The notes: generated from the sequence alone by a model not told the origin. Positions 16,793 to 34,093 are shown, numbered from the stretch's first letter. The stretch is 43,237 nucleotides of DNA from Candidatus Parcubacteria bacterium (GCA_023132875.1 JAGLXN010000032.1:1-43237); one strand, 5' to 3'. Numbers and translations are program-made.

Positions 16793-17152
16793 ATGTATTC
16801 CAGTATTAAACATAAAATAAAGCAATTTTCAAAATACTTGTCTATTTTCTCTTTTGTTTCTTTATTTTTTGTAAAAAAAAGTCAGGCTGTTATAACTTTA
16901 ACAAAAATATCAGGCGTCCCCACAAAACCAATTGCCGACATTTTAGATGACATAATAAAATGGATTTTAGGATTTGGACTTATGATTGCGGTAACTTTCT
17001 TGGTTTGGGGAGGAATCAATTATGTAGCATCATCGGGAGACGCCACAAAAACAGAAAACGCGAAAAAGGTTGTAAAATACTCAATATTGGGAGTTCTTGT
17101 TATAGGATTTTCTTACGCGGCCATTATTATGTTGGATGTAATTTTCAGCTAG
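16793..17152 (+). CDS. VirB2/TrbC-like (T4SS-type) pilin 1
   Basis: Signal peptide ending SQA; W.LG...WGG..Y..SSGD..K...AKK...Y..LG. Confidence 0.75.
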   Translation: MYSSIKHKIKQFSKYLSIFSFVSLFFVKKSQAVITLTKISGVPTKPIADILDDIIKWILGFGLMIAVTFLVWGGINYVASSGDATKTENAKKVVKYSILGVLVIGFSYAAIIMLDVIFS

Positions 17153-17175
17153 AAAATTAATAGAAATTGCTATAT

Positions 17176-17283
17176 TTAGAACATAGAAGAATATTTTTTA
17201 TAGCTGTCATTTCAAATCCCGATAGGGTGAGAAACCTACCAGCCGGCGAATTGAGATGACAAGATTGTTTTTCCACATTCCAA
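17176..17283. mobile_element. MITE-like TGTCAT...ATGACA element, shorter inverted sibling of 3859-4033
   Basis: TTAGAACATAGAAGAATATTTTTTATAGCTGTCATTTCAAATCCCGATAGGGTGAGAAA matches the reverse complement of ~3975-4033. Confidence 0.7.
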
Positions 17284-17366
17284 TGTTATAAACAATGTAA
17301 AAATTTAGCAATACAGCAATTTAATATAATTTGACCAAATAATAAAAAAGTGTAATAATAAACATA

Positions 17367-17720
17367 ATGAAAGAAAATAAATTATCAATCTTATTTGCTT
17401 TTTCTGTTTTGACAGTTTTGTTCTTATCTCTAACTAACTCTGTAAGCGCTCAATGGTCAGTTCCTAATAATGTGTTTAGTCTTCCAGAAGATATTGACCA
17501 GGGAATACTAAACCTAACTAATTGGCTTTTGTGGTTTGTCGGACTACTTTCAGTTTTAGCTATAATTTGGGGAGGAATCAATTATATATTCTCTTCAGGA
17601 GACACTCAAAAAGCAGATTTGTCCAAAAAAATAATATATTACGCGCTAATTGGATTGTTTGTTGCCGGTTTTGCTTATGCTATTATGCACGTAATAACCA
17701 CTATGATACTTACACAATAA
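17367..17720 (+). CDS. VirB2/TrbC-like pilin 2
   Basis: Signal peptide ending VSA; NLTNWLL...WGGINY..SSGD...SKK..YALIG. Confidence 0.75.
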   Translation: MKENKLSILFAFSVLTVLFLSLTNSVSAQWSVPNNVFSLPEDIDQGILNLTNWLLWFVGLLSVLAIIWGGINYIFSSGDTQKADLSKKIIYYALIGLFVAGFAYAIMHVITTMILTQ

Positions 17721-17768
17721 TAAAATTTTTTAGACAAGTTAAAATGTTATTATTAAATTTATAGCGCT

Positions 17769-18119
17769 ATGAAAATAAATAAAAAAAATCTAATAGTGTC
17801 TATAAGCACTGCTTTTTACCTTTTAACCGCAAATTTAGCAATGGCAGCAAGTTCGTGGGGAGCTCCTCCACAACCGGGCGGTGTCCCTATAAATATTGAA
17901 AGCGGATTATTAAACCTGACCAATTGGATTTTAGGATTTGTTTCAATGATTGCTGTTTTGATGGTTATATGGGGCGGAGTGTTATATTTAACTTCAGCAG
18001 GCGATGAAAGCAAAGCGGAAAGCGGAAAAAAGACAGTGACTTATGCGCTTATGGGATTAATTATTGCCGGCTTAGCTTATGGAATAATAAAGGTAATAGT
18101 AGTAAATATTTTAGCATAA
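17769..18119 (+). CDS. VirB2/TrbC-like pilin 3
   Basis: Signal peptide ending AMA; NLTNWILG...WGGVLYLTSAGDE..GKK..YALMG. Confidence 0.78.
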   Translation: MKINKKNLIVSISTAFYLLTANLAMAASSWGAPPQPGGVPINIESGLLNLTNWILGFVSMIAVLMVIWGGVLYLTSAGDESKAESGKKTVTYALMGLIIAGLAYGIIKVIVVNILA

Positions 18120-18160
18120 CAGATTTTTAAATAAAAAATAAATTTATAATTTGAAAGGGG

Positions 18161-18529
18161 GTGAAAAAAATGAAGAAATTAATTAAAAGTATTTCAGCTT
18201 TGTCAATAATGGCTTTCGCATTCGCTTTTAGTTACAGTACCGCTTTCGCCGCAATTTCCACTTGGGGAGCTACATGCAAACCAGCAGGAGTTCCTACCGA
18301 TATCAGAGCAGCTATTATGAATGTTACTAACTGGATTTTGGGCTTCATTGCAATCGTCGCTACATTGGTAATTATCTACGGAGGCGTCCAATATCTTACT
18401 GCTGGAGGAAATGAAGATAATGTTGGTGCCGCAAAGAAAACTATTTCCTATGGAATTATCGGAATTGTAATTTGTGGTCTCGCATACGCTATGGTAATTG
18501 TTGTTTCTACTGTTATTTTGTCAGCATAA
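18161..18529 (+). CDS. VirB2/TrbC-like pilin 4
   Basis: Signal peptide ending AFA; NVTNWILG...YGG..YLTAGGNE..AKK..YGIIG; AAGGGGGTG SD suggests start at ATG 18170. Confidence 0.78.
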   Translation: MKKMKKLIKSISALSIMAFAFAFSYSTAFAAISTWGATCKPAGVPTDIRAAIMNVTNWILGFIAIVATLVIIYGGVQYLTAGGNEDNVGAAKKTISYGIIGIVICGLAYAMVIVVSTVILSA

Positions 18530-18554
18530 TAACTACACGATTATATCTATATTT

Positions 18555-18587
18555 AAAAGAAAGGCAAATATTCGCCTTTCTTTTTTT
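18555..18587 (+). terminator. intrinsic terminator after the pilin array
   Basis: AAAAGAAAGGC-loop-GCCTTTCTTTTTTT. Confidence 0.75.
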
Positions 18588-18739
18588 ATAATTTAAAAGA
18601 GTAACAATAACACTGTTTTCTTAATACAAAAAATTGGCTTAATGCTTAAAAATTATGATTTGGATTTTTTGAGTTGTTGTTTTACGAGATAAAAGTTTTT
18701 ACCATTATTTTGTTAGTATAAAATATCATAATTTTATTC

Positions 18740-18771
18740 AAAAAAGAGAGATAAGTAGTTCTCTTTTTTTT
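18740..18771 (-). terminator. terminator-like hairpin after the flippase
   Basis: AAAAAAGAGAG-loop-TTCTCTTTTTTTT. Confidence 0.5.
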
Positions 18772-18787
18772 GGTTGGATTGTAAAAC

Positions 18788-20026
18788 TTATTTAAACTTT
18801 TGATAAATTGTCATTAAGTTACATGAAGTATAAAATAAATAAGTGGCTATTAATGAAACTAAAGAACCTTTAACTCCATAATGAGGAATTAAAATAATGG
18901 AAAGCGAAATATTTAATAGTAAACTAACATTCATAAAAACTACTCTTTTCTTTATAAGTCCCATATAATCTGAAAATCTTACTAGAAAAGTGTTTATCCC
19001 TGCCAAAAAAAAGTATGCTATCCCAATTCTCAATAAACTAACTAAACTTAAATATTCACTTTCATAGAAATAGATAATCATATGCTTTGAAAAAATAAAA
19101 ATAAACGAGAGTATAAAAATATAAATAAGTATTAAAAAAATAAAGTATTTTGTAAAAATTCTGATCAATTTATCTTTATTTCCAGTATCAATTTCAGAAA
19201 AAAGAGGAGCGATTCCCATTCCGAGAGAGAGAGGAATTATATTTATTCCCCTGTTTAAATATTTTATAATACTGAATTCAGCAACCCAAGAAAAATTACC
19301 GAATATACTAAGAAGAATTACATTAACTTCCCTTAATAAAATACCAGATCCGGATGATAATAAAAAAAAGGAGGATTCTAAAAAAACTCCCTTTTCTAAT
19401 ATTACGGTTTTTTGATAACTGACTTTCTTAAAAAATAACCATCTAACAAAAGAAGAGCTTATTATCAAACCAATTAAGTAAGATAATAATAAATACTCAA
19501 TGGTAAAACTATATATTATTGGAATTAATAGTGCTATTACCGATACAAAATTTTTTACAAAACTTGAAATAGCTAAATATTTATTCCGATGTATAGCATT
19601 AAAAAAAGTATAAAAATCTAAATAATAAGTCAAAAAGCAAGCTATTGTAATTATAATCAGCCAAATATTATATGGAGATTTATCAAAAAATAAAAATAAC
19701 AAAATAGAAAATAGAATACATAAAATAAAATTAATTCTTCTAAAATATTTATAAGAGTTTACAGCAGGAGAAATATCTTTGGTTGTTTTGATTATTCTTG
19801 AAATTCTTCGGGCAATAGCTCTATTAAGTCCAAAATCAGTAAACACTTGAATGAATAATATTAAAGAAAGATAATAATTAAACTGTCCAAAAAAATCTTT
19901 TGTAACAATTAATGGAAGAGAAATAATAAAAAGACCAAAAAGAGCATCAAGCAAATTAGCAACAAATGCCCAAATAGTTTCTTTGTTGTTTTTTTTTATA
20001 ACCCAGTTTCTTAACTCCTCCTTCAT
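18788..20026 (-). CDS. Wzx/MOP-superfamily oligosaccharide flippase
   Basis: About 12 TMs; FG.F, DFGLN.AI.R, LN..L..ILIP.YG..G motifs. Confidence 0.8.
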   Translation of the reverse strand: MKEELRNWVIKKNNKETIWAFVANLLDALFGLFIISLPLIVTKDFFGQFNYYLSLILFIQVFTDFGLNRAIARRISRIIKTTKDISPAVNSYKYFRRINFILCILFSILLFLFFDKSPYNIWLIIITIACFLTYYLDFYTFFNAIHRNKYLAISSFVKNFVSVIALLIPIIYSFTIEYLLLSYLIGLIISSSFVRWLFFKKVSYQKTVILEKGVFLESSFFLLSSGSGILLREVNVILLSIFGNFSWVAEFSIIKYLNRGINIIPLSLGMGIAPLFSEIDTGNKDKLIRIFTKYFIFLILIYIFILSFIFIFSKHMIIYFYESEYLSLVSLLRIGIAYFFLAGINTFLVRFSDYMGLIKKRVVFMNVSLLLNISLSIILIPHYGVKGSLVSLIATYLFYTSCNLMTIYQKFK

Positions 20027-20826
20027 AATTTATGATGCTTAATTATTTTTTTACTCCTTAAATGTTTCCAAAATTCTGGTTTGTTTAAACTATATTTATC
20101 TAAACAATTCAGAATCTTTTTTTTATTCTCTCCATAATCCTTCAACATTTTATTTAATAATGTAAACTTATCAAAGTTCTTAAAATAAATTTCGGAATCA
20201 GAATAATCAATAAAATAAACCTTGCCGCTTATTAAATATATGTTATCTGGAGTAAGATCGCCATGAATTAAGCATTTATTTTTTGATCCGTATAGAATAT
20301 TGAGTGAAAAGGAGATTTTTTCAAAAATATTAAAAATTTGCTTTTTTGAGTATTTGCCATGTTTTATTTCTATAGACAAACTGGGCACTTTTATAAAAAA
20401 ACATTCTGTAAAATTTTTATGGAAAATAAAAGATGGAAGATTTATTGCTGTATCATTGTTATAATATTCTGAAAAATATTTTAATTCTCTTTCAAGAATA
20501 TTTTTATTGTCAAACTTCTTCTTAATTACCAGTTTTTTATGAGTATCTTTACTTAAAGTAACTACACTTGGATAATTTCCCGTTCCAATTCTTTTAATTA
20601 AAAATTTGTTATTAAAATTTTTTGAAAATAACAAATTTATTTTAAGCTTAAAAAACACTAAAGCAATAATATAAATAAAGGATTCAAAAAAGAAGAGCAG
20701 TATTTTTGGTTTAAATACTGGGCGAAATAAAAAAAATCTATAAAAGATTTTAAATGTTTCAAAATCATTTCTGATTAAATATTCATTTTCAACTAATTTT
20801 GCAACTTTTAACTTTAGATATTTCAT
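20023..20826 (-). CDS. APH/choline-kinase-like phosphotransferase
   Basis: IGTGNY loop, VIKK, HGDLTPDNI, FIDY. Confidence 0.7.
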   Translation of the reverse strand: MKYLKLKVAKLVENEYLIRNDFETFKIFYRFFLFRPVFKPKILLFFFESFIYIIALVFFKLKINLLFSKNFNNKFLIKRIGTGNYPSVVTLSKDTHKKLVIKKKFDNKNILERELKYFSEYYNNDTAINLPSFIFHKNFTECFFIKVPSLSIEIKHGKYSKKQIFNIFEKISFSLNILYGSKNKCLIHGDLTPDNIYLISGKVYFIDYSDSEIYFKNFDKFTLLNKMLKDYGENKKKILNCLDKYSLNKPEFWKHLRSKKIIKHHKL

Positions 20827-21982
20827 TTGGTAAACACTTAAAAATTTTCTCTGTTACTCTTTTCGCAATTTCTTCTTGTGAATATTTGCTTGTGTCAATA
20901 GATATATAATTTATATCGTTTTTTTTTCTTTCAAAAGCATCTTGCACTTGTTTTATATTTATAATACTAATTTCTGGTTTTCTTTGATACAATATTTCTG
21001 GTGAAGCTGTCAAATAGAATATTAAATTAACTTTCGGAGTTAAACAATAAAATAGTTTATACAAAAAATTATTTTTCGCCCTTATTAATCTATCATAGAA
21101 AAAGCGATCAAAAATAATAATATTTTTATTAGAGATTATCAATTTAAAATAACGAATGTGTAATTCTAAGTAAAATATTGCTAAACTAAAAAATCCAAAT
21201 TTTTTTATCTTACGGCTGTTATCTAAATACGGATTTTTTTTAGGTTTAGTAACGCTTTCATAAATCGCTATTGGAAAAATCTTAAAATTTTTCCATCCCA
21301 TATATTCTACCGCGACTTTCAAACATTTTATTTTTTTCTTTAACTCCACGATAGCAGAAGATTTACCGGAACCATCAACACCAATAAAAACAACTTTTAC
21401 TTTTTTCCCTGGCGGAAAATTTCCAAAAATTTTATACAGTATGAATTTTTTAATGTTTTTTCTTATCAATGCTTTTTTAATTATAATTGGATTTTTAACT
21501 TTTTTAATTGATAATTGTAATTTATCAGACAAAAAATCTGTAGGAATATCGTTATTATTAAGATATCTTATTATTCTTTCTTTTTTTGATTTAAAAAACA
21601 TAAAACCTAAATACCTATCCAAATAACAATAATTATTATTTAAAACATAAATATTCTGATTTAAGAAAGAAACAGAATTATTTTCAATTTTGTTAAAAGC
21701 AATTTTAAAAACACCGCAATATTCCAATCCATCAATATGAAAATCTAATAAATTCAATGCTCCTGTTTTTTTATCCAGCCGGATTACAAAGATATGGTTG
21801 TTAAAAAATAATTTTTTTCTGACTATCTTATAATTCTTAGGAAAATTTATTTTATGAAAATCTAATTTTGATATAACAATATCTATATCTCTGTCTTCTG
21901 GTAATATTTTATGCTTAAGATATATTTTTTCTAAGCTTAACTCTTTTCTAATATCAAATAAAGTTTCTTTATCGTTTTTCAT
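20789..21982 (-). CDS. putative NTase-like + thymidylate-kinase-like P-loop fusion
   Basis: N-terminal DIDIVI; GVDGSGKS, YMG, DRFFYD, ILYQRK. Confidence 0.65.
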   Translation of the reverse strand: MKNDKETLFDIRKELSLEKIYLKHKILPEDRDIDIVISKLDFHKINFPKNYKIVRKKLFFNNHIFVIRLDKKTGALNLLDFHIDGLEYCGVFKIAFNKIENNSVSFLNQNIYVLNNNYCYLDRYLGFMFFKSKKERIIRYLNNNDIPTDFLSDKLQLSIKKVKNPIIIKKALIRKNIKKFILYKIFGNFPPGKKVKVVFIGVDGSGKSSAIVELKKKIKCLKVAVEYMGWKNFKIFPIAIYESVTKPKKNPYLDNSRKIKKFGFFSLAIFYLELHIRYFKLIISNKNIIIFDRFFYDRLIRAKNNFLYKLFYCLTPKVNLIFYLTASPEILYQRKPEISIINIKQVQDAFERKKNDINYISIDTSKYSQEEIAKRVTEKIFKCLPNEISKVKSCKIS

Positions 21983-23147
21983 TATGTTTGCTTATATTCA
22001 TATAAATTTTCGATGTTTCATCAACCATTTTCTCTACTGAAAAATATTTCGCTGTTTTCAATCCATTTTCTACAAACTTTTTTCTTATATTATTATTATC
22101 TAACAAAATAGAAATTTTATCAGCCAAATTTTTATAATCTTTTTTATTTATTAAAAATCCATTCTTATCGTCTTTGATTAGCTCTTTTGTTCCTCCAACG
22201 TTTCCTCCAATTACAGGAGTTCCGCAAACCATTGCTTCTAAAAATGTTATACCAAAACCCTCTCTTAAAGATGGCATGACATAAATTGAAGCTTTTTTCA
22301 TTTTATCCAAAACATATTCATTTGATTTTCTACCCTTAAATTCTACTCGTTTTTTTAAACCCATTTTATCTATAAAACCTTCAAGATATTCCTGATTTAT
22401 GTCTTGTCCAATAATAATAATTTGTAAATCAGAATATTTTTCTTTTATCAAAGAGAAAGCTTTAAATAAAGTAATAACGCCTTTCCTTTGTAAATTATTC
22501 CCTATTATCAAAATAAATTTTTCTTTTTTACTTTTGTGATTTTCAAAATTTAAAGAAATTCCATTATAAACAACCAGCGTTTTTATCTTGTCTATTTTAT
22601 AAACATCAACTATCTTTTTTTGAACATGGCCAGAAACAGAAATTATAAAATCCAGATTTTTTAAACAAATTTTTTCTATTATATTAACAAAATTATAATA
22701 AAAATACCTTTTAATCCAGTCATTATATAATTTTTTATAGAAGAATGGGTTGCAATTAGCTTCCATAAAAGTATAATCATGCATTGTCCCAATTATTACG
22801 GCTCTATTTTTCTTATAATGAAAAAGGTTAGTCCAAAAAAATTCTCTTGCGTCGGTAAAATGAATAATATCAATTTTTTCTTTTTTTATTAACCTTTTTA
22901 ATGCAAGAAAAAACTGAAAAGACAAAGTAAACCAATTTCCATGAGATGGATCGCATTTACATCTTTTTATTTCTATTAATTTGACATTTAGACTTATAAA
23001 CTCCCTTTTTTTTTCTTTCGGACATATAACAGTAACTTTATGTCCTTGCTCCGCGACTGAATTTATCAAGTTTGTAGAATAAGTCCCAACTCCGCTTGCA
23101 AAATTACCGTACTGCTGAGTTAAATAACATATATTTAGCTTTTTCAT
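21969..23147 (-). CDS. GT4 glycosyltransferase
   Basis: SGVGTY, MHD, RKG, EGFGITFLEAM. Confidence 0.9.
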   Translation of the reverse strand: MKKLNICYLTQQYGNFASGVGTYSTNLINSVAEQGHKVTVICPKEKKREFISLNVKLIEIKRCKCDPSHGNWFTLSFQFFLALKRLIKKEKIDIIHFTDAREFFWTNLFHYKKNRAVIIGTMHDYTFMEANCNPFFYKKLYNDWIKRYFYYNFVNIIEKICLKNLDFIISVSGHVQKKIVDVYKIDKIKTLVVYNGISLNFENHKSKKEKFILIIGNNLQRKGVITLFKAFSLIKEKYSDLQIIIIGQDINQEYLEGFIDKMGLKKRVEFKGRKSNEYVLDKMKKASIYVMPSLREGFGITFLEAMVCGTPVIGGNVGGTKELIKDDKNGFLINKKDYKNLADKISILLDNNNIRKKFVENGLKTAKYFSVEKMVDETSKIYMNISKHNEKR

Positions 23148-23171
23148 TATTATATTTTATTTGCCTTTCAA

Positions 23172-24323
23172 TTATTTTTTCAAATCAATAATTATATCTG
23201 CAACCATTTTTCCTATTTTCTCAGAGTTTAAATCTTTTTGAAAAAGAAAATAACTATTTTCAGCTATTTTATTTTTTAATTCGTTGTCATTCTTTATTTC
23301 CAAAATCGCATTCTTTAAAGATTCCGCATTCCTATTTTCACAAAGCAAAATATTTTCCTTATCTGTAAATAATTCTCTTATCGCAGAAGAATCACCAGTA
23401 ATTACGGCTTTTTTACAAGCAATCGCCTGAAAAACCTTGTTTGGAATAACTCTTGACGATTTATTTGTGCCTCCGAAAATTCCTAAAATTACATCGGCTT
23501 TATTTATTTCATTTATCAGTTCATTGTACTCTATCCACTTTACAAAATCAATATTTTTAATCTTTAATTTTTTTCTTAAATTCATTATTTCCTCATCAAG
23601 CTGTCCGCTTCCAATTATCTTAATTTTAACACTTTTATCCTCATTTTCTAAAAATTTTGCGGCTTTTATAATATATTCAAGCCCATGAAGCGGGATATAT
23701 TTTCCGATAAATAAAACCGTAAAAACTCCTCCTAATCTCCCCTTATCGGAGGGGGAACATCGCGGAAAAAAAATATCTTCATCGGCTCCGACCCAAACTC
23801 TCTTAAATTTGCTTTTATCTAAGCTAAATAAGTTGCTTATGTAATTTATATGCTCATTTGTGTCAAAAATAATTATATCAGCCATTTTGAAAGAAAATCT
23901 ATCAATGTAGAATAGAAGCTTAGCAAATAGATTATTTTTACTGGAAAGACCTCTATCAGCAATCACCGTATCATAGAGAGATACAAGAGGAACGAATAAT
24001 ATTTTAGGCTTATTTTTTTTGAATAATAATAACGCTTTAAGAAAAAAAATGTCCAGTTGTCCGATATATCCGACAATAATCACATTAACATTTCTGCACT
24101 TAGAAAAAAACACAAAACAAAGCCTTGCGTAAGCAGATACTAAACCAACAGCCAGCTTAAACATAGAAAATAATTTTAAAAAATTGCCGTGCTTATTTCT
24201 ATATTTTTCCCATAAAGAAACATGGCATTCAACAATGTCTATGCCATTTTTCTTTAATCCCTTTATTATTATACGATTTGAGGGATAATTCTTTTCATAT
24301 GTTCCAAAAAAACATACCTTCAT
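23172..24323 (-). CDS. GT4 glycosyltransferase
   Basis: G.YIPLHG, LGIFG, VIPNKVFQAIA; GT-B layout. Confidence 0.85.
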   Translation of the reverse strand: MKVCFFGTYEKNYPSNRIIIKGLKKNGIDIVECHVSLWEKYRNKHGNFLKLFSMFKLAVGLVSAYARLCFVFFSKCRNVNVIIVGYIGQLDIFFLKALLLFKKNKPKILFVPLVSLYDTVIADRGLSSKNNLFAKLLFYIDRFSFKMADIIIFDTNEHINYISNLFSLDKSKFKRVWVGADEDIFFPRCSPSDKGRLGGVFTVLFIGKYIPLHGLEYIIKAAKFLENEDKSVKIKIIGSGQLDEEIMNLRKKLKIKNIDFVKWIEYNELINEINKADVILGIFGGTNKSSRVIPNKVFQAIACKKAVITGDSSAIRELFTDKENILLCENRNAESLKNAILEIKNDNELKNKIAENSYFLFQKDLNSEKIGKMVADIIIDLKK

Positions 24324-24325
24324 AA

Positions 24326-25276: not shown

Positions 25277-25329
25277 TATATACAGTATTATTTTAAATTT
25301 GTACAAAATTTTGTTATTCTAAGCCTAAT

Positions 25330-25510: not shown

Positions 25511-25586
25511 ACTTTTTGCAGATGAGTTGAAATAAGAAAACTCTAAATTCACAATATCTTAAATATTCAAATTCCTTAGCAATAAA

Positions 25587-27227
25587 TCATTTATTAAATG
25601 ACAGTCTAAATATTTTAATTGGTTTAATAGAATCATCTTCATAAAAAAGCTCGATATTCTCAGAATATTCATCTAAGCTCGCTAATTCTTCATAATTTCC
25701 CCTTATTCCAAGATATCTCTTGTCAATTATAATATAGCTAACATTTTGAGCTTTGGCAAATTTTATTACATTTTCAGCAGATGTGTATGGAATTCCAGCG
25801 CCTCTTGTCTTGCTTTGAGAGTAAAAAGAAATAAACGGTTTCCTGGACATTATAATATCTTCTTTTGAATTATAAGATGGATTATTTTTCAGGCATTCAC
25901 CTGCGATCTTATGTTCTGTCGGATAATTAAAAGTAAAATGCAAATAATATGAGATAGCTCCAATAAAATTAACAAAAATTAATATCACAACCAACAATCT
26001 TAGAGCCGTAAAAAAATGTCTGATGTTAAACCTTATACCTTTGACTGTTAATAAAATGGATTTAGTGCACAAAGAACAGCCAACTGAAGCTAATAAAATT
26101 ATAAATATCATTACTTGAAGAATATATCTGCTTTCAATGTGAAATATCGGAAAAACTGATAAAAAAACAATTGGAAAGAACGACAATATGAATATTTTTT
26201 TAAACAACTTTTTTGCCATAAGTGAAAAAAATAAAAGCGCGCTGATTGGAATCAGAAAAATATCAACTGAATACATATCAATCAATATTTTAATTTCAGA
26301 TAAAATTCCTTTCATATATCTATCCAAAAAATCAGTTGGATTGTTAAAAATATATTCTTTTAGGCTGACATTTGCAAATTCTTCAGAAAGTTTGATAGAA
26401 TTAGTTTTCTCATCATAATTTGAAAAAGTTTGCTCGTAAAAAATAGCATCGTCTTTATTTATTTTTCCAAAATCTTTTCCATCAAGAATTGCGCCTGTTA
26501 TTAGATTTGGAGCTGATTTGGCGGTCAGACTGACTTCTCCAGTATGCTGATATAAAAAAAATATATATGGAGCAATAATAAGAACAAAGGAAAAAACAAC
26601 AATCAAAAAACTTTCCATTGCTTTTTTTGTTCCCAATTTCCTTTTTTTAAAAATAAAAAGTAAAAATGGAAAAGCTAAAAAAATTATCCCCTCAGGCTTA
26701 ATTAAATAAGCATATCCTATAACAAAACCTAACATAACAGCCAGCCAAATTTTATATTGATCTAGAAGCTTTAAATATATATAAATTATCAATAAAATAA
26801 AAAATAAATACAACGATTCAGACCAGCTTTCATTAGACAATATTATAAACATATGATGAGTCGCCGCGAAAAAAGCGGCAAAAAGTCCGGCTGTTTTGTT
26901 AAACATTTTTTTTCCAACCAGATAAAAAAGATAGACTGCTAAAAAACCAAAAATAAAAGAAATAAATCTGGCAGAAAAAAGCAGATTATCAAAAAAGTAG
27001 TCTGCAATTCCTATAAAAACTGGATACCCCGGAGAAAATATAGTTTCTGGATTGCCAAAAACTTCATATTTTCCGTTTTCAATCAGATTTTTTCCCGCTA
27101 TTGCGTATCTCACTCCGTCAGTAGTGATAAACCCTTCCTGAGAAAAAAAATAAAGCCTTGAGAAAAAAGCTACGGATAGAATTAGAATAAGTATTATTGT
27201 ATTACTATGCTTTTTAAAATAATTCAT
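25587..27227 (-). CDS. GT-C (PMT/ArnT-like) membrane glycosyltransferase
   Basis: TDGVRY after TM1, PGYP, SESLY, IKPEG, RY; many TMs. Confidence 0.8.
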   Translation of the reverse strand: MNYFKKHSNTIILILILSVAFFSRLYFFSQEGFITTDGVRYAIAGKNLIENGKYEVFGNPETIFSPGYPVFIGIADYFFDNLLFSARFISFIFGFLAVYLFYLVGKKMFNKTAGLFAAFFAATHHMFIILSNESWSESLYLFFILLIIYIYLKLLDQYKIWLAVMLGFVIGYAYLIKPEGIIFLAFPFLLFIFKKRKLGTKKAMESFLIVVFSFVLIIAPYIFFLYQHTGEVSLTAKSAPNLITGAILDGKDFGKINKDDAIFYEQTFSNYDEKTNSIKLSEEFANVSLKEYIFNNPTDFLDRYMKGILSEIKILIDMYSVDIFLIPISALLFFSLMAKKLFKKIFILSFFPIVFLSVFPIFHIESRYILQVMIFIILLASVGCSLCTKSILLTVKGIRFNIRHFFTALRLLVVILIFVNFIGAISYYLHFTFNYPTEHKIAGECLKNNPSYNSKEDIIMSRKPFISFYSQSKTRGAGIPYTSAENVIKFAKAQNVSYIIIDKRYLGIRGNYEELASLDEYSENIELFYEDDSIKPIKIFRLSFNK

Positions 27228-27958
27228 TATTTATTATATTTTTTCGTTAATAGATTTATCTTTATTTTTAAGAGTTCTTTAAAGGTAAATAAATAATCCT
27301 TGTAACGCACTCTTGTTTCTTTTCTGTTTTCCCAAATCACGGGAACAGTTTTTATTTTATATCCAAATTTATTTGCAATGGCTAATATTTCAATATCAAA
27401 ACCCCAACGATCAATTGTTAGTTTTGGAAAAATATTTTTTACAAAATTAGACGAAAAACATTTAAAACCGCACTGTGTATCGCTTATTTTGGATACTACG
27501 AAGAGTTTTATTAATTTATTTCCAATATTCCCAAACAATTCTTTATAAAACGGCTGGTGCTTTTTAATTTTACTATTTTTAAGCGCCCTGTTTCCTATTA
27601 TAATATCACAACCATTTTCTAAAAATGGAATAAAGTTTGCAAATTGATCTATGCTCGTTGAATTATCAGCATCCATAAATAATCTAAATTTTCCTTTTGC
27701 AAACAGCATCCCCCTTTTTACGGAATATCCTTTGCCTCGATTTTTATCATTTTTAATAATAGCCAAATTCTTAAAATCTGATTGTAGGCTTTTGACTATA
27801 GAAAATGTTTTGTCTCCTGAACCATCATCTACGACAACTATTTCATAATTATATTTTTGTTCAGAAAGAAAATTTTCTATTTCAATCAAAGTGCTTTTTA
27901 TTAATTTTTCTTCATTATATGCCGGCATAACCACCGATAAATATATTTCTTCTTTCAT
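27227..27958 (-). CDS. GT2 dolichyl-phosphate glucosyltransferase-like (DPG synthase)
   Basis: PAYNEE, DDGS.D, NRGKG, FMDADNS, DTQCGFK, WGFDIE. Confidence 0.9.
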   Translation of the reverse strand: MKEEIYLSVVMPAYNEEKLIKSTLIEIENFLSEQKYNYEIVVVDDGSGDKTFSIVKSLQSDFKNLAIIKNDKNRGKGYSVKRGMLFAKGKFRLFMDADNSTSIDQFANFIPFLENGCDIIIGNRALKNSKIKKHQPFYKELFGNIGNKLIKLFVVSKISDTQCGFKCFSSNFVKNIFPKLTIDRWGFDIEILAIANKFGYKIKTVPVIWENRKETRVRYKDYLFTFKELLKIKINLLTKKYNK

Positions 27959-28159
27959 TGCTTTATTTTAATATTACCTTGAATTACGGAACTCTTACAA
28001 TTTGTTCGTTTAGTGTGAATATTAGCTCAATTAGTGTTTATTATAGAAGGCACTAATAAAACTAATATTTACACGAAGGTAACTAAAACTAAAATTTCGT
28101 AATCCAAAGAAATTAGTTAAACCATAGAACAATACAACAATTTTATTCTTCAATTTTAC

Positions 28160-29452
28160 TCATCTGCCCACACTCAAATAATTAAACCCCAATTTTTTCA
28201 TTTTGTTCAAGTCATAGATATTTCTTCCATCAATAATATTAGGTTTTTGCAGAAGATTCTTTATTCTTTTTAAATTCGCGTTTTTAAATTCGTCCCATTC
28301 AGTGGCTATTATTAAAGCTTGGCAATTTTTAAGCGCGTCATATTTATTTGAATAAAAATTTACAGTCTTAAATTTATTATCTCGCCGAAGTTTTTCATAA
28401 TCAACCTTTGGATCATAAGCGTTTATTTTTCCTCCTTTTTTTTCAAGCAAATCAATAATATCAATTGCTGCTGATTCTCTCGTATCATCTGTATTTGGCT
28501 TAAAAGAAATCCCCCAAACGCATATTTTTTTATTTTTTAAATTGCTTAGCAATTTCTCCGTTTTTTCCGCCAATAGCAGCCTTTGATCATTATTAACTCT
28601 GACAACAGCCTTTAAAAGCTTAAATTTATAATTATTATTCAAAGCGATATTATGAAGAGCTCGGACATCTTTCGGAAAACAGCTCCCTCCATATCCGATA
28701 CCCGCGTCTAAAAATTTATTTCCTATTCTGGAATCTAATCCCATAGCATAAGCGACTTCATTAACATTCGCCCCGACCCTTTCACACACATTCGCAATTT
28801 CATTAATAAAAGATATTTTTGTCGCTAAAAACGCATTACTTGCGTACTTTATCATTTCTGCAGTTTCAATTTTCGTATTTACAATAGGACAAGAAAATGG
28901 CTCATAAAGATTTTTTATTATATCTTTTGACCCCGCGGAATCTATTCCAACAATAATTCTTTCCGGATTCATAAAATCAAATACCGCGCTTCCTTCTCTT
29001 AAAAATTCTGGATTTGAAGCTATGTTAAAATCTCCCTTATATTCTTTCTTTATTATATTTCTAACTAAACATCCGGTTCCGATCGGAACAGTGCTTTTAT
29101 TGATTATGACGGTATATCCTTTAAGATTTTTACCGATTTCCTTCGCGGCTTTCTTAACATACGACAGATCAGCTTCTCCGTTTTTTTTCTGAGGAGTGCC
29201 AACCGCTATAAATATTGCTTTTTTATTCAGAACCGCTTCTTCCGGATTTAGCGTAAAAAAGATTCTTTTCTTTTTTATATTTTTATTGATCAAATCTTCC
29301 AATTTAGGCTCAAAAAAAGGAATTCTGCCTTCTTTTAATTTTTCTATTTTTTTCTCATCTATATCATAACAAACAACATTATTTCCAAGCTCAGCAAAAC
29401 AAGCTCCTGTTACAAGCCCTACATATCCTGTGCCAAAAATTGAGATTTCCAT
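28160..29452 (-). CDS. ugd: UDP-glucose 6-dehydrogenase
   Basis: GTGYVG, KSTVP, NPEFLREG, KYASN, GYGGSCFPKD, FKPNTDD.RES. Confidence 0.93.
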   Translation of the reverse strand: MEISIFGTGYVGLVTGACFAELGNNVVCYDIDEKKIEKLKEGRIPFFEPKLEDLINKNIKKKRIFFTLNPEEAVLNKKAIFIAVGTPQKKNGEADLSYVKKAAKEIGKNLKGYTVIINKSTVPIGTGCLVRNIIKKEYKGDFNIASNPEFLREGSAVFDFMNPERIIVGIDSAGSKDIIKNLYEPFSCPIVNTKIETAEMIKYASNAFLATKISFINEIANVCERVGANVNEVAYAMGLDSRIGNKFLDAGIGYGGSCFPKDVRALHNIALNNNYKFKLLKAVVRVNNDQRLLLAEKTEKLLSNLKNKKICVWGISFKPNTDDTRESAAIDIIDLLEKKGGKINAYDPKVDYEKLRRDNKFKTVNFYSNKYDALKNCQALIIATEWDEFKNANLKRIKNLLQKPNIIDGRNIYDLNKMKKLGFNYLSVGR

Positions 29453-29456
29453 AGTA

Positions 29457-29522
29457 TTGGAATTATGAATTATGAATTATGAATTAAGTATAAAAATATT
29501 CCTGATTCCTGATTCATAATTC
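29457..29522. repeat. inverted heptamer array pair (TGAATTA)n ... (TTCCTGA)2TTCATAA
   Basis: Read directly; fills the intergenic gap. Confidence 0.8.
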
Positions 29523-29530
29523 TATCATTA

Positions 29531-30868
29531 TTATCCAAAATACGGCAGATTTTCTATTTTCTTAATTTCTGAATAATATATCAGCAATCCCTGTGAAATT
29601 AATATAAAAATAACCGCCCAGAGATAAATCAGTTTTTTATCAGTTATATTATTTCTTTTAATAAATATATTAGCGAATTCATAAATACCGATTCCAGATA
29701 TTATCTGAAAAGCAATTAGAACTGGAACAATATATCTAAAAGAATAAGTTTTGCTAAACAAAATCACAAAAGCGAAGAATGAAAAGAAATAAATCGCTAA
29801 AATTAAAGCTTCGCTGCTTACATTCATTTTATTACTTATTCTTCTTATAATCAATAGCAAAAACCCAACAAAAATTATTATTACAAAAAGATTAAACGAC
29901 AGGACAAACGAATCAGACAAATACGCAAGCGCTACATTGGAACCGAAAAGAACGCTATGATTCTCAGTTATAATTCTTTGGGAGCTTTCTTTCGTTATCA
30001 AATTTAATACAGATCGCGGATTTGATATTATAGCGGGTAAAAAAATAACGCTTGTTGAGAAAAAAACAATGATCCAAGACGCGTAATCTTTGATTATGTT
30101 TTTTATATCACTGTAGAGACGCAATATTGCTGCGTCTCTACGAAAATATGACGCAAAACTTAACTTATAAAACATTAAAACAAATAAGCCAAAGGGGATA
30201 AGAAATAAAGCTGACATTTTTGTAAGCGCGGCCCATGAGCCAAGCACCGCTGAAAAAACAAGAAACTTTCTGCCTCCTTTACCGCTTGAATAAACCAATA
30301 AGCTTAAAAGACTTAGAATGGAAAAAATACCGACAAATTTATCGGTTGGAGTTGTAAAATATATATAGTATGGAGTAGTTACTATTAAAAGCACGGAAAA
30401 AATTACAGCCCATCTGCTAAATGCCAGTTTCCGCAATAAATAAAATAAAGAAAAAATAAAGAAAAAAATTGTTGTTAATATCGGAATATTAAACAAAAAA
30501 CTCATTTCCTTATAATTACCAAATAATTCTTGATTTCTTTCATTTATAACATTATAGCCAACACCAGATTCATTGAGATTTTTTATAAAGCTAACAATAG
30601 AATTAAAATCATAATTTAAAATCTCCATAAAGGGTCCTGCTGCCCACATTACCATAATTCCCGGATGCGGCGACTGTATTAAATTAGAAAAATCAAAACT
30701 TAAAATACTATCCATAAAAAATCTTGAACGAAACATCCACAAAAGTTCGTCAAGATTTATAAAGGTCATGGAATGTTTTATTTTAAAAAAAGATAAAAAA
30801 ACAATCCCGACAAAAACAATTACAAACACAACGAGAAAATCTTTTATGTTTTCTTTATTTTTTTTCAT
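29531..30868 (-). CDS. GT-C (PMT-like) membrane glycosyltransferase
   Basis: LDELLW, HPG, DK, LTK, RY; paralog of 32750-34093; start likely ATG 30868. Confidence 0.75.
   Translation of the reverse strand: MKKNKENIKDFLVVFVIVFVGIVFLSFFKIKHSMTFINLDELLWMFRSRFFMDSILSFDFSNLIQSPHPGIMVMWAAGPFMEILNYDFNSIVSFIKNLNESGVGYNVINERNQELFGNYKEMSFLFNIPILTTIFFFIFSLFYLLRKLAFSRWAVIFSVLLIVTTPYYIYFTTPTDKFVGIFSILSLLSLLVYSSGKGGRKFLVFSAVLGSWAALTKMSALFLIPFGLFVLMFYKLSFASYFRRDAAILRLYSDIKNIIKDYASWIIVFFSTSVIFLPAIISNPRSVLNLITKESSQRIITENHSVLFGSNVALAYLSDSFVLSFNLFVIIIFVGFLLLIIRRISNKMNVSSEALILAIYFFSFFAFVILFSKTYSFRYIVPVLIAFQIISGIGIYEFANIFIKRNNITDKKLIYLWAVIFILISQGLLIYYSEIKKIENLPYFG
30113..30141. repeat. GTAG-type REP palindrome in-frame within the GT-C gene
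   Basis: GTAGAGACGCA-ATATTGC-TGCGTCTCTAC. Confidence 0.85.
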
Positions 30869-31016
30869 TTTATTGGTTGTTGTTGAAATAGTTAACAAAA
30901 ATTAAGTCTAAAGATACATATCTGCCTACCGGACAGGCAGGCATAAAAAAGAATGATATAGCTAGCTCCCCTCCTTAAAAGGGAGAAGATTTTAGCGAAA
31001 ATCACCACATAACAAA

Positions 31017-32615
31017 TTACTCTAAAACCCAAATCCGCCCTTCTTCGTTTTCATACGATTTTTCAAACCTTTGATCTGATTCCAAAACAAATATTAATTT
31101 GCCATAATCGGTCCCGCTATTTTTGGGCACATAAACATAACTTGCTTTAAATTCTTTTTTGATTATATTATAAACAGAATATCTGCCTTCTTTTGTACAT
31201 TTTTCTTTATTACAGATGATTCCTTCGCTTATATGACTATAAAGCCAATATTTTTCAGGAGATAGTTTATAGAGAAATTTTGGATCAAGACCCATAATAT
31301 AATAATTGTGAGTATTATAAAAAAACAATTTTGAAAAATCTCCCCAATTAACATTAAAAACTACAGATTCTTTGGGAGTATTTTTTTCAAGCCACTGGGA
31401 AATTTCCTGAATGCCCCTGCTAGAACCACTTTCTCCCATTCTACCAAAAACAAATTCTGCTTTTAAGAAAAATGATATTCCTAAAATTATAATTAAAAAA
31501 ATAATGCATGCTGATTTTGACTTATACTTAACACCAGGTATCCGATTAGATACCCGATGCCTAATTAACAATGAATAATTTCTCAATAGAAACTCAAAAT
31601 AAAATGCGATAAAAATTACACAAAAGGGAATCCAGTAATCAATATATCTGCCCTGCAAAAACATTGCAACAAAAAAAACGCTAGAAACAATCAGTAAAAA
31701 ATTAATTACTATCGCATGTTCCGTTTTCTTTTTCTTGTTATTTTTATTACTAGCAATCTTTGAAATAAACATAACAAAATAAATAGCAACAAGCAATAAA
31801 AACAAAATTAAAATAATTGTAGCATCAAAAAAAACAAGACTTGCGCCGAGAGGCTGCCATTCGGATATACTCGAAGTAAGAGAATATGGCACTGATCCTA
31901 TATAATAAATATTAAAATAATTTAGATTATTTGGAAAAAACGGGTTAACAAAAAAAGCTAAAACTATGCCGAGCAAAGATGCCGAAATTGTCTTGTAGTA
32001 AATTTTCTTTTTATGTATATAATTCACAAAGACGAAGACGAAGACGAAAAAAATAGACAGCGGAAATGACGCATGACCCCACACAAATAAAAAAGAAACT
32101 GCAAAAAGCAATAAGTTATTTTTTTTAATAAGAGCGTAAAATACCAAAAGGAGAAATATCACAGCGAAACTAAGAGGTCTGGCAAGATTCATTCTAAAAA
32201 GAAAATATCCTGAACTTGAAAGCAGCAAAAAGCACCAAAATAAATTATATTTTAATCCCAGATTTTTTAATACTAAATAAAACATTGACATCATAGATGA
32301 AAAAAAGAACAATGAAGCAAGTTTCGCGCCAAAAACCAAATTTCCTAAAAAAGTAAAAGGGATGAGAAAAAAATAATACAAAAAATGAAGGCCAGTAAAA
32401 TTCCTATTCATCACAGTAGAATTAAGCCATGGAAATTCTTTTATTAATCCCTGATTTTTTGTTATCTCGGCCAGTTTTATGTATAAATGACTATCATTTC
32501 CCGCCAGATTTCCGCTTGAAAACTGTATTATAGAAAATAATAAAAAAATGACAAAAAAAACAAGAACTACATCTCTATTTCTATAAAACAAATTTAAAAT
32601 TCTTTTATTGTTCAT
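31017..32615 (-). CDS. GT-C membrane glycosyltransferase with STT3/AglB-like motifs
   Basis: GNDSHLY, SISEWQP, WLEKNTPKESVVFNVNWGDF; ~12 TMs plus C-terminal soluble domain; track extension to 32741 translates a repeat array. Confidence 0.65.
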   Translation of the reverse strand: MNNKRILNLFYRNRDVVLVFFVIFLLFSIIQFSSGNLAGNDSHLYIKLAEITKNQGLIKEFPWLNSTVMNRNFTGLHFLYYFFLIPFTFLGNLVFGAKLASLFFFSSMMSMFYLVLKNLGLKYNLFWCFLLLSSSGYFLFRMNLARPLSFAVIFLLLVFYALIKKNNLLLFAVSFLFVWGHASFPLSIFFVFVFVFVNYIHKKKIYYKTISASLLGIVLAFFVNPFFPNNLNYFNIYYIGSVPYSLTSSISEWQPLGASLVFFDATIILILFLLLVAIYFVMFISKIASNKNNKKKKTEHAIVINFLLIVSSVFFVAMFLQGRYIDYWIPFCVIFIAFYFEFLLRNYSLLIRHRVSNRIPGVKYKSKSACIIFLIIILGISFFLKAEFVFGRMGESGSSRGIQEISQWLEKNTPKESVVFNVNWGDFSKLFFYNTHNYYIMGLDPKFLYKLSPEKYWLYSHISEGIICNKEKCTKEGRYSVYNIIKKEFKASYVYVPKNSGTDYGKLIFVLESDQRFEKSYENEEGRIWVLE

Positions 32616-32652
32616 TGGCGATAAATTAATCCTGAGCGAAGCCGAATGGGAC

Positions 32653-32746
32653 AGTAATTTATAGTAATTTATAGTAACTCGTTGTAATTTATTGTAATAA
32701 CCAATTACAATGAGTGACAATAAGTTACCATTAGTTACCATAAATT
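32653..32746. repeat. inverted period-10 array pair
   Basis: AGTAATTTAT-like units followed by GTTACCATTA-like units; sibling at 40780-40900. Confidence 0.75.
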
Positions 32747-32749
32747 AAT

Positions 32750-34093
32750 CTAAAAAAACTTTAAAACACCGTCTTCAATTATTCTTTTTGATAATTGCCC
32801 GCTTGAGGTAATAAAAATAATCTGAGACAACACCACTACAATAAACACTAATGTATAAAGAATTTTCTTATCTTCATTGTCCAGTTTTATCTTTTCCGCA
32901 ATTAATTCAAAAATTCCATACAGTCCAACAGCGGAAATAATATTTAATACAACAAAAGCAGGTGACATAAATCTAATATCATGATTTTTACTTATCAGAG
33001 TAACCATGACAAAAAATAGAACTATATATAAACTTATAATATTAATGATTTTTTTAGGAAGCGAATCAAGCACATGCCTATATTCTTTTTTAAAATTAAT
33101 AATAAAATAGGCAAATAACGACATAGAAGATGCCTGTGCCATATATCCTATTATCACAAACGCAAAAGACTTTAAATAGTCAAATAAGACTCTATGTGCA
33201 TAATTACTGACTTCGTAGCTTTTTTCAATAACATGTTCCGATTTAAAAACTAAACTATAAACCTCTTGCGAATTTGTAATTATGGTCGGCAAAAATACTA
33301 TGCTTATAACAATAAAAATCAAAATCCATGATAAATAGTCTTTCAAGATAAGTTTTATCTTTTTTTTATCAATTGGCCATGCGTAAAAAACAAAAATCAA
33401 TAAATAAAAAGGTAAAATAAAAAACGCTGATAATTTAGAAAGTACAGCCCAAGCACCAAACACTGCGGATAAATATAAATATTTTTTGCTTCCAAGCTTG
33501 TTTATATATATAAGAATTGTCAAAAAACTCAGAGTCATAAAAATATTTAGCATTTTGTCGCTTGGAGTATTCCAATAAGCAAGAAATACGTTTGTTGTCA
33601 AAAATAAAAGAGCGAAACTTGATATTACTTTATTAAACCCCAATTTTCTTATTAGATAATAAAATGCTATAAAAAAAGCCACTGTTAACAATATTAACGG
33701 TGCATTAAAAGCAAAACTTATCGTTTCATATGCCATATAAACGGCTTGATTATTATCATTAATCGCGTGATTAAAATCAAGGCCTTGGGCTTCTTTCTCG
33801 GCAATTCTCCTCATAACATCATTAAAATCAAAATCTATAAACTTCATCATAAAACCGGTAAACCAATATACCATTATCCCCGGTTGGGCTGATTGAATGA
33901 GTCCTGAAAAATCAAAATTTACAATCTTGTCCCAAAAAATACTTGCTCTATAATGCCAAAGCATTTCATCAAGACTGGGGAAAGTAAAGAAATTATTTAA
34001 TTTCATAATAGCAGTCACGACAAATCCAGAAAATATAATTACCATAACACTAATAAATTCTTCAAGTTTTCGATAATTTGATTTAAAATCCAT
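32750..34093 (-). CDS. GT-C (PMT-like) membrane glycosyltransferase
   Basis: LDEMLW, FDFSGLIQSAQPGIMV, DK, LSK, RF; paralog of 29531. Confidence 0.75.
   Translation of the reverse strand: MDFKSNYRKLEEFISVMVIIFSGFVVTAIMKLNNFFTFPSLDEMLWHYRASIFWDKIVNFDFSGLIQSAQPGIMVYWFTGFMMKFIDFDFNDVMRRIAEKEAQGLDFNHAINDNNQAVYMAYETISFAFNAPLILLTVAFFIAFYYLIRKLGFNKVISSFALLFLTTNVFLAYWNTPSDKMLNIFMTLSFLTILIYINKLGSKKYLYLSAVFGAWAVLSKLSAFFILPFYLLIFVFYAWPIDKKKIKLILKDYLSWILIFIVISIVFLPTIITNSQEVYSLVFKSEHVIEKSYEVSNYAHRVLFDYLKSFAFVIIGYMAQASSMSLFAYFIINFKKEYRHVLDSLPKKIINIISLYIVLFFVMVTLISKNHDIRFMSPAFVVLNIISAVGLYGIFELIAEKIKLDNEDKKILYTLVFIVVVLSQIIFITSSGQLSKRIIEDGVLKFF

Follow-up and report, generated by a model that had tools for sequence, protein, structure and literature searches.

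In the 43,237-nucleotide contig of a Candidatus Parcubacteria bacterium (GCA_023132875.1 JAGLXN010000032.1:1-43237; C26 in our numbering, analysed whole and referred to below as the window), a block of 12 genes on the minus strand (34093-18788) converges with four small tandem pilin genes on the plus strand (16793-18529). The block is very probably a polyprenyl-phosphate-dependent surface glycosylation island. One of its products is a membrane glycosyltransferase (GT) of the GT-C type (31017-32741, minus strand) that, by predicted fold and by profile, resembles the protein oligosaccharyltransferases STT3, AglB and PglB. The reading that we prefer, with a probability of about 45%, is that this operon-like island encodes a pathway similar to archaeal Agl glycosylation, in which the STT3-like enzyme would modify a secreted or surface protein. 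The genome comprises 1.13 Mb in 93 contigs with a completeness score of 100%, and public homologues of the window proteins carry the labels Patescibacteria, Pacebacteria and similar. Genes were called from an open reading frame (ORF) listing combined with Pfam and NCBIfam scans.

The locus had been singled out in an original prediction, made from the nucleotides of the window alone, as four tandem genes facing a flippase, two GT4s, two GT2s, Ugd and four GT-Cs. All of these genes are where they had been placed, and the block also holds a P-loop gene and a kinase-like gene beyond that list. From position 34093 downwards, the order is a 447-aa GT-C, the STT3-like GT-C, a 455-aa GT-C, Ugd, a 243-aa GT2, a GT-C of the PMT_2 family, a 326-aa GT2, two GT4s, the P-loop gene, the kinase-like gene and Wzx. 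Gaps between the 12 genes are short, or the genes overlap, and a layout of this kind is no chance pattern. The four GT-Cs were recognised by the Pfam model PMT_2 (546 aa), by fold (455 aa), by paralogy (447 aa) and by fold together with profile (574-aa ORF). Family scans found no Bac_transf, MraY-type, Wzy or Wza family in the window, as the original prediction had stated for Wzy, Wza and initiating phosphoglycosyltransferases. Its further proposal, lipid-linked glycosylation at the outer face of the membrane by pairs of GT2 and GT-C proteins, is well supported by the gene content. PMT_2 matches of the whole genome were confined to the minus-strand block.

The STT3-like protein escapes simple sequence searches. 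It has no Pfam match, a single-sequence search of the PDB was empty, and its sole family match was the NCBIfam model archaeo_STT3 (TIGR04154; E = 8.5e-9, sub-threshold). The ORF encodes 574 aa; in public data the gene is called with 532 aa, which would put its start at 32615. An AlphaFold2 (AF2) model built from 45 sequences reached a predicted local distance difference test score (pLDDT) of 91.9 and a predicted template modelling score (pTM) of 0.92. In a Foldseek search with this model, STT3 chains took the first nine places (E = 4.9e-10 to 1.2e-8), DPY19, AglB and PglB came next, and ArnT had an E value of 3.9e-5. VIA gave the same ranking, with a Z score of 27.3 for STT3 (8pn9_A; 4.8 Å, 485 residues aligned), 24.1 for AglB (3waj; 3.3 Å, 442 aligned) and 23.6 for PglB (5ogl), compared with 22.6 for Pmt (358 residues aligned only), 21.4 for DPY19, 19.9 for ArnT and at most 17.4 for Aft/Emb. 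The C-terminal 135 residues alone aligned with the C-terminal domain of AglB-S2 (3vu0; Z 10.2, 2.6 Å, 115 aligned). The modelled protein would thus combine a GT-C domain of about 13 membrane helices with a C-terminal extracytoplasmic domain of the AglB/STT3 type, which is the architecture of a GT66-type fold. For the GT-Cs, a Wzy or polymerase identity was considered and rejected: weak matches to EpsG (best E = 4.7e-4) were confined to 3 of 45 members of the STT3-like family, and the fold matches listed included neither a Wzy nor a WaaL chain.

Profile comparison pointed in the same direction. A profile of 45 family members matched Archaeoglobus fulgidus AglB with E = 1.5e-10, and archaeo_STT3 matched 31 of the 45 at E <= 0.01. 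In the alignment, the invariant residues E252 and R323 of the family fall on AglB residues 360 (in the TIXE motif) and 426, which we take to be the catalytic glutamate of the fifth external loop (TIXE/SVSE motif) and the conserved donor-binding arginine, respectively. The family stretch W-L-x-x-N-T-P is matched to the part of AglB just before WWDYG, and a further invariant residue, D41, directly follows the first membrane helix.

Several observations nevertheless weigh against an enzyme of the established kind, and with it against our preferred reading. The Pfam model STT3 (PF02516) matched none of the 45 members at E <= 1 and nothing in the whole genome, and the archaeo_STT3 matches reached about 34 bits, where the cut-off is 450. 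The WWDYG motif, which in GT66 enzymes reads the +2 Ser/Thr of the sequon, is replaced in the family by W-[G/D/S]-D-F-[P/S] (N-W-G-D-F-S in the window protein), and some members lack even the motif Trp. The acceptor is not given by the fold alone. Because PF02516 matches are absent and WWDYG is replaced, we place the protein, on its sequence and its model, in a probable sister family of GT66 (STT3/AglB/PglB) rather than in GT66 itself. This kinship with protein oligosaccharyltransferases makes a protein acceptor more plausible than the original prediction could argue. Its claim of attachment to surface proteins has thereby gained one GT-C of the appropriate relationship, with a protein as the putative acceptor.

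The STT3-like family is large, has no Pfam model and is unnamed. An exhaustive profile search yielded 4,539, 3,363 and 2,229 clusters (counted at 50% identity) at E values of 1e-3, 1e-10 and 1e-30, respectively. The 79 word-indexed homologues are without Pfam domain and are named "hypothetical" at most; two of them come from Diapherotrites archaea. A protein atlas places the STT3-like protein among unnamed clusters from other bacterial phyla.

Relatives of the STT3-like protein suggest what its donor may be. Homologues in two genomes (G289, L025:9921-12230, 769 aa; G114, L024:8521-10842, 773 aa), both directly adjoining pilin arrays, are longer than the window protein; a scan revealed an N-terminal GT2 domain in the G289 protein, and the G114 protein is of like length. 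GT2 fusions occurred in 3 of the 13 odd-length representatives tested, and a search for homologues of 1181-3370 aa found none. Natural fusions of this type include the proteins P0175, P0186 and P0298. In six further genomes (G124, G033, G025, G229, G340 and G369), a GT2 gene lies directly beside the gene of the STT3-like family, and in G096 it is one gene away. Because relatives are fused or adjacent to a GT2, the sequences point to a polyprenyl-monophosphate-linked sugar as the donor of the family. As far as the acceptor is concerned, two aspects of the fusions speak against our preference. A fused GT2 suits a single-sugar transferase (DPY19, PMT, ArnT) as well as an AglB-like enzyme, and one family member, P0267 (786 aa), ends in a GDPD (glycerophosphodiester phosphodiesterase) domain, a hint of a polymer or lipid with glycerophosphate.

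The other three GT-Cs are of the PMT_2 type. The 546-aa protein (25587-27227, minus strand, as are all genes of the block) alone exceeds the cut-off of PF13231 (50.1 bits versus 26.1); the 455-aa protein (29531-30898) with 22.5 bits and the 447-aa protein (32750-34093, the first gene of the block) with 19.7 bits both remain below it. The latter two are paralogues (34.8% identity over 440 aa, E = 1.4e-73). The 455-aa ORF, whose true start is probably the ATG of codon 11, was assigned from its fold and its homologues, 22 of 76 of which carry PF13231 and three of which are named GT39 by NCBI. Its AF2 model (pLDDT 79.9) consists of a bare GT-C_A membrane domain without soluble domain, and VIA Z scores of 21-23.5 result in a tie among the membrane part of AglB, Pmt4, ALG12 and ArnT. 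All 31 sequences compared, among them the 447-aa paralogue, have D50-E51 in the first external loop, an acidic pair typical of a PMT_2/GT39/GT83-type fold. PDB sequence searches were empty both for the profile of the 455-aa family and for the 546-aa protein. The original prediction had named grouping with Wzy or with wall-polymer-modifying enzymes as a result that would speak against it. None of the GT-Cs grouped with Wzy, but those of the PMT_2 type are inseparable from wall-polymer or lipid modifiers such as ArnT.

The GT2s and the remaining glycan genes fit the same type of pathway. The 326-aa GT2 (24326-25306; PF00535, 116 bits), of ArnC/GtrB/PgfS type with two C-terminal hydrophobic helices, had ArnC as its best NCBIfam match (209 bits versus a cut-off of 529), followed by PgfS and AglJ. 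The 243-aa GT2 (27227-27958; PF00535, 98.8 bits) is Dpm1/PgfS-like and without membrane helices; it matched PgfS and a dolichyl-phosphate hexose transferase, both below cut-off, and its stop codon overlaps the start of the PMT_2 gene. For both proteins, the best NCBIfam rows are all lipid-phosphate sugar synthases and all lie under the equivalog cut-offs, so that the sequences suggest polyprenyl-phosphate glycosyltransferases. The UDP-glucose 6-dehydrogenase of Ugd/TuaD/AglM type (28160-29452) contains all three UDPG_MGDP_dh domains and scores 480 bits with TIGR03026 (cut-off 189.8). The two GT4 genes encode proteins of 392 aa (21969-23147; PF00534, 148 bits; PF13439, 84.7 bits) and 383 aa (23172-24323; PF00534, 74.5 bits), and the last gene of the block encodes a Wzx/MOP-type flippase of 412 aa (18788-20026; PF01943 Polysacc_synt, 57.4 bits).

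In the pathway that we envisage, Ugd, by family assignment, makes UDP-glucuronate, and the two GT2s, typed in the same way, are of the kind that loads sugar onto polyprenyl phosphate at the inner face of the membrane. With a start on polyprenyl monophosphate, no phosphoglycosyltransferase would be needed. The two GT4s may extend a lipid-linked glycan, the Wzx-type protein would flip lipid-linked sugar outwards, and transfer at the outer face would be the task of the four GT-Cs. Of these, the STT3-like enzyme would glycosylate at least one secreted or surface protein, and the other three, of PMT_2 type, would add or extend sugars.

The block is found in relatives. With the single STT3-like protein as query, a match was obtained in 10 of 41 related genomes, and with the profile in 51 of 401 genomes of one class. 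The order 447-aa GT-C, STT3-like, 455-aa GT-C, Ugd, PMT_2 and GT2 is identical in G017 and G013, where the cores contain one GT2 per four GT-Cs, and likewise in G007 except that the PMT_2 gene is missing. The G007 locus also lacks the part from wzx to the GT4s, and this part is swapped for other genes in G007 and G017. The STT3-like orthologue of G007 (contig C12, L015:11422-13020), the closest one with 78% identity, is broken by one in-frame TAA and is therefore split or decaying. The accessory set around the STT3-like gene varies in other families, with a methyltransferase in G096 (L073:10881-11465) and a GT87-like GT-C in G033 (L018:15291-16583).

The alternative that survives best is that the island builds or decorates a wall polymer, a teichoic-like polymer, a lipoglycan or a glycolipid. 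Polyprenyl-phosphate sugars made by the GT2s and flipped by the Wzx-type protein would in this case be added by the GT-Cs, for instance to a secondary wall polysaccharide. Wzz, the GT4s, the phosphoglycosyltransferase, Wzy_C and LCP proteins would then make the backbone, and the pilins would be neighbours by inherited order. We consider this quite possible, though not probable. Parts of a wall-polysaccharide route are indeed present and count against our preferred reading: Wzx and a Wzz/CpsC-like gene (10485-11090, plus strand) lie in the window, and one Bac_transf phosphoglycosyltransferase (on contig C39), three Wzy_C genes and two LCP genes lie elsewhere in the genome. With the phosphoglycosyltransferase and Wzy only outside the window, these genes do not form a Wzx/Wzy pathway at one locus. 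In G017, homologues of the upstream Wzz and of two upstream GT4s are directly beside the GT-C block and on the same strand. The tie of the 455-aa GT-C with ArnT, Pmt and ALG12, the best score of the 326-aa GT2 with ArnC next to an adjacent Ugd, and the single GT2 for four GT-Cs in G017 and G013, which resembles polymer pathways with one lipid-linked donor, are in line with a wall polymer as well, and so is the GDPD fusion of one relative. The restriction of pilin linkage to one clade with a common flank (see below) also suits it. On the other hand, the STT3-like enzyme is nearer to STT3/AglB/PglB in fold and profile (Z 27.3) than to ArnT (19.9) or Aft/Emb (<=17.4), its C-terminal domain is of the AglB type, and the pairing with pilins is kept in the window and in G025 despite flanks unlike those of other families. 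These observations lead us to favour a protein acceptor for the STT3-like enzyme.

Which protein this could be is a separate question, for which the neighbouring array is of interest. By family model and architecture, the four plus-strand genes appear to encode VirB2-like secretion-system pilins (PF18895). They encode proteins of 119 aa (16793-17152), 117 aa (17367-17720), 116 aa (17769-18119) and 122 aa (18161-18529), with PF18895 scores of 38.2, 41.2, 46.4 and 48.2 bits versus a cut-off of 26.6. All four have a signal-peptide-like start and two hydrophobic helices, and the first three share 29-42% identity with the fourth. Weak TrbC/VirB2 matches were obtained for two of them (pilin 2 matches TrbC with 25.7 bits, under the cut-off). 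The original prediction was thus right in calling them pilins, with the qualification that they are not type IV (PilA) pilins but resemble VirB2/TrbC pilins of type IV secretion systems (T4SS). The family model and the architecture agree with this assignment; no T4SS gene lies beside the array in the window, and AAA_10 matches are located on contigs C63 and C35. Among 14 control genomes, PF18895 matched only that of the archaeon Haloferax volcanii, an unexpected result when the description of the family is one of bacterial pilins.

In order to describe the linkage of the array with the STT3-like family, our own hidden Markov models were run on the surroundings of family genes in 52 genomes (64 stretches, each of at most 20 kb). 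In this sample, drawn from the 401 genomes of one class, distant pairs on the same contig but outside the fetched 20-kb stretches may be missed. PF18895 genes are present in all 51 genomes carrying the family (383 matches, 150 of them listed). In 7 of the 51 (G033, G190, G114, G289, G124, G152 and G096, from three taxonomic families), 6-166 bp separate the STT3-like family gene from a convergent pilin array. The distance is 9.8 kb in G025 and 12.5 kb in the window, with only genes of the glycan block lying between, so that 9 genomes of 5 families have an array within 12.5 kb. With 63 loci placed at random, no more than 1.9 were expected to fall within 1.7 kb of a pilin match, and 7 were observed (Poisson P = 0.003 assuming independence, which does not hold). 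The pairing is also kept with different flanks, since NifU and the DUF4012 protein are upstream in the window, and XerC/D, S15 and NYN genes lie beyond the block in both the window and G025.

Other results on linkage weigh against a functional connection and hence against this support for our reading. At the distance found in the window, 12.5 kb, up to 13 cases were expected and 9 observed, which is not above chance. When 68 family proteins were placed in a tree, the linked genes, 10 in total, and the window gene belonged to one clade of 22 rows, and no pilin linkage was found in the sister clade of 46 rows. The tree requires 4 state changes versus a mean of 9.5 after shuffling, and none of 500 shuffles was as low; the linkage may therefore be inherited synteny. 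In the three families with direct adjacency, the genes before the array have the same size and order, so that the adjacency may belong to an inherited backbone. Pfam identified these genes, in G289 only, as GyrA, a methyltransferase and a solute-binding protein; an upstream VirB4 operon, which had been considered, was rejected on the same evidence. No pilin array stands beside the gene in the fetched stretches of G002, G007, G009, G011, G013 and G017, all from the family of the window, although part of this set consists of short contigs; all that was seen in G011 is a 422-aa protein, encoded 11 kb off, that contains a pilin-like domain. We conclude that the pilin linkage is real but partial. 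The expectation that pilin arrays and GT-Cs stay linked in relatives is borne out by abutting genes in 7 of 51 genomes and by distances of up to 12.5 kb in 9, and no such array was seen in the stretches fetched from six other genomes of the window's own family.

That the island serves the glycosylation of the neighbouring pilins is a special case of our preferred reading, and one that we consider rather unlikely. The proximity to VirB2-like arrays in one subfamily speaks for it. So does the position of the window array between two sets of glycan genes, because the upstream Wzz and GT4s adjoin the GT-C block in G017, and the array therefore sits between genes that are neighbours there. Furthermore, 3 of the 5 pilin loci of the genome have glycan genes as neighbours: Wzx in the window, a phosphoglycosyltransferase and RmlD on C39, and a GT2 beside a lone pilin gene on C9. 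On C39 (4461-11045, L003), two VirB2-like pilins lie between the Bac_transf phosphoglycosyltransferase (6554-8044) and RmlD (4461-5297), all on the same strand, with the start of RmlD 33 bp past the second pilin gene. A solute-binding protein is encoded upstream, as it is before arrays in other families.

The orientation of array and block is less favourable. They are separate, always convergent units and so are not co-transcribed, and in the window a terminator-like hairpin lies between the array and wzx (18555-18584, no strand; 11 pairs, an A-run before and a T-run after). Terminator-like sites are not in excess in the region (8 versus 7.0 +/- 2.7 in shuffles), so that only the position of the hairpin is suggestive. 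The pilins themselves do not stand out as acceptors either. Exposed tails of 28 linked pilins have no conserved Asn, Ser, Thr or Trp position. The N-glycosylation sequon was tried and rejected as a common feature: N-L/V-T precedes the first helix in 3 of 4 window pilins, yet in none of 5 in G033 and in 1 of 3 in G025. Sequons in the tails of 25 linked pilins numbered 5 in 728 residues compared with 8.1 expected from shuffles, so there is no enrichment, which is a further point against a protein acceptor of this kind; tails of 38 unlinked pilins contained 6 in 1,138 residues (8.9 expected). A complex prediction for the STT3-like protein with pilin 4, run without controls, scored 0.01 and counts neither for nor against such a pair. 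Glycosylation is not known from VirB2-type pilins. The four window pilins are still the best-placed candidate acceptors. As putative targets, they retain from the original prediction the adjacency in 7 of 51 genomes, set against their separate unit, the single subclade and the lack of sequon enrichment. A more detailed version, in which the STT3-like enzyme would be a protein glycosyltransferase of a new bacterial lineage and use a GT2-made polyprenyl-monophosphate sugar on the exposed N-terminal tails, the PMT_2-type GT-Cs would extend it, and W-x-D-F would read an acceptor other than N-x-S/T, is doubtful. A role in host attachment, as proposed originally, is speculation.

It is also unlikely that array and block are unrelated, variable surface-gene cassettes gathered in a low-GC, rearrangement-prone region beside XerC/D, as might be suggested by a GC content of 22.6-27% at 20-24 kb versus about 30% elsewhere in the window (its lowest part being that from wzx to the GT4s), by the replacement of this part in G007 and G017 and by the chance-level linkage at 12.5 kb, because adjacency at 6-166 bp occurred in 7 genomes where at most 1.9 were expected, though these genomes are mutually related.

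The remaining genes of the block and its surroundings are as follows. The kinase-like membrane protein (267 aa, 20023-20826) has only sub-threshold Pkinase/RIO1/Bud32 matches, and its matches to PDB kinases are weak (E >= 0.11). The C-terminal half of the 397-aa protein encoded next to it (20789-21982) resembles P-loop nucleoside monophosphate kinases (Thymidylate_kin, E = 7.7e-4, under cut-off; PDB 2plr, a thymidylate kinase, E = 3.1e-4). Both genes (20023-21982) sit in the stretch of lowest GC content (22.6%), and BLAST found no counterparts in the fetched syntenic blocks of G007, G017 and G013; their products may phosphorylate a sugar or lipid. Upstream of the pilin array, on the plus strand, lies a further glycan cluster (9380-16012) of a GT4, the Wzz/CpsC-like gene, two more GT4s and, as its last gene, one for a DUF4012 protein of 763 aa (13721-16012). 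On the far side, a gene for a XerC/D-type recombinase (34582-35532, minus strand) forms, together with S15 and the NYN gene, a border of the block that is conserved in G007, G011 and G025. Three ORFs of the window are without Pfam family (6157-7116, 319 aa; 37853-38389, 178 aa; 40931-42874, 647 aa). Those of 319 and 647 aa have no NCBIfam match either, and the latter has a 50%-identical homologue at the same place in G011. Elsewhere in the genome, on C37 (4897-10563, L002), proteins of 938 aa (with LVIVD repeats) and 658 aa (sub-threshold) end in a T4SS_pilin domain and are followed by two M48 peptidases; from their sequences, the two large proteins may be pilin-anchored surface proteins.

Enzymes of the GT66 family (STT3, AglB and PglB) share with the STT3-like protein the GT-C_A fold, a small C-terminal alpha/beta domain and the aligned loop Glu, Arg and W..NTP stretch. 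It differs from them in having no PF02516 match, in W-x-D-F for WWDYG, in a C-terminal domain of only about 130 residues, and in relatives with fused or adjacent GT2s, which are not known from established oligosaccharyltransferases. STT3-type protein glycosylation outside the PglB lineage is regarded as an archaeal and eukaryotic trait. Members of the present family come from Patescibacteria and from the two Diapherotrites archaea, to which the protein atlas adds other bacterial phyla. If the enzyme modifies surface proteins, it offers a handle on the coat of ultra-small episymbionts, whose surface chemistry and host-contact structures are barely known; if it modifies a wall polymer, the STT3 scaffold serves non-protein acceptors. 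Should pilin tails be the acceptor, these would be the first glycosylated T4SS-type pilins, and bacteria would have put the STT3 scaffold to use a third time, independently and possibly in common with DPANN archaea. Under either acceptor reading, the GT2 fusion opens the question of the donor to assays in vitro.

Several known systems combine a GT2 with a GT-C. In three-component glycosylation of wall polymers and lipids, represented by GacI/J/K/L of Streptococcus pyogenes, CsbB-YfhO, GtrA/B/C and Ugd-ArnC-ArnT, the sugar passes from a GT2 synthase via a flippase to a GT-C, which transfers it outside. Mycobacterial Emb/Aft enzymes are a further precedent for a wall polymer or lipid as acceptor. 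The island has this set of components, with a 326-aa GT2 closest to ArnC, an adjacent Ugd and a PMT_2 family that includes ArnT. It is unlike these systems in that the window holds no ArnA/B/D-type genes and has four GT-Cs rather than one, among them one that resembles STT3 and not YfhO, GtrC or ArnT. Bacterial protein O-glycosylation by GT2 and GT-C is represented by Streptococcus mutans Pgf (PgfS, PgfM1, PgfM2) and by actinobacterial Ppm1-Pmt. Here, the GT2 is likewise paired with PMT_2-like GT-Cs, and PgfS matches both island GT2s below threshold (136 and 74.5 bits); in contrast to these systems, the island has no equivalog-level match, and the locus contains no known acceptor adhesin or sortase substrate.

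Haloferax volcanii Agl is the closest parallel in terms of roles. That system comprises AglJ, AglG/I/E, AglR, AglB, AglD, AglS and AglM, and its GT2 starts on polyprenyl monophosphate, without a phosphoglycosyltransferase. The island differs in that its extension enzymes are GT4s rather than GT2s, in three extra PMT_2-type GT-Cs and in its bacterial host. By analogy, it has a putative counterpart for each role: an initiating GT2, cytoplasmic extension glycosyltransferases, a flippase of the Wzx type, an AglB-like transferase, another GT2 with a GT-C for sugar that is added outside, and UDP-glucose dehydrogenase. NCBIfam matches in the island include AglJ (83.7 bits), AglM (385.8 bits) and dolichyl-phosphate hexose transferase, none at equivalog cut-off.

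In Patescibacteria themselves, a literature search outside subscription journals found nothing on the present family, on STT3/AglB-like enzymes in general or on protein glycosylation machinery. For type IV pilins of Saccharibacteria, the accessible part of a 2024 preprint (PMC11623550) gives predicted O-glycosylation sites and terms the machinery "unexplored". The accessible text of another preprint describes 441 tandem VirB2-like pilin arrays of 2-11 genes in 383 assemblies of Patescibacteria and mentions no glycosylation neighbours (bioRxiv 10.1101/2025.01.22.634366). The array of the window is not beside virB4; as in that description, it consists of tandem divergent PF18895/TrbC-type genes, four in this case, and here they face a glycosylation island.

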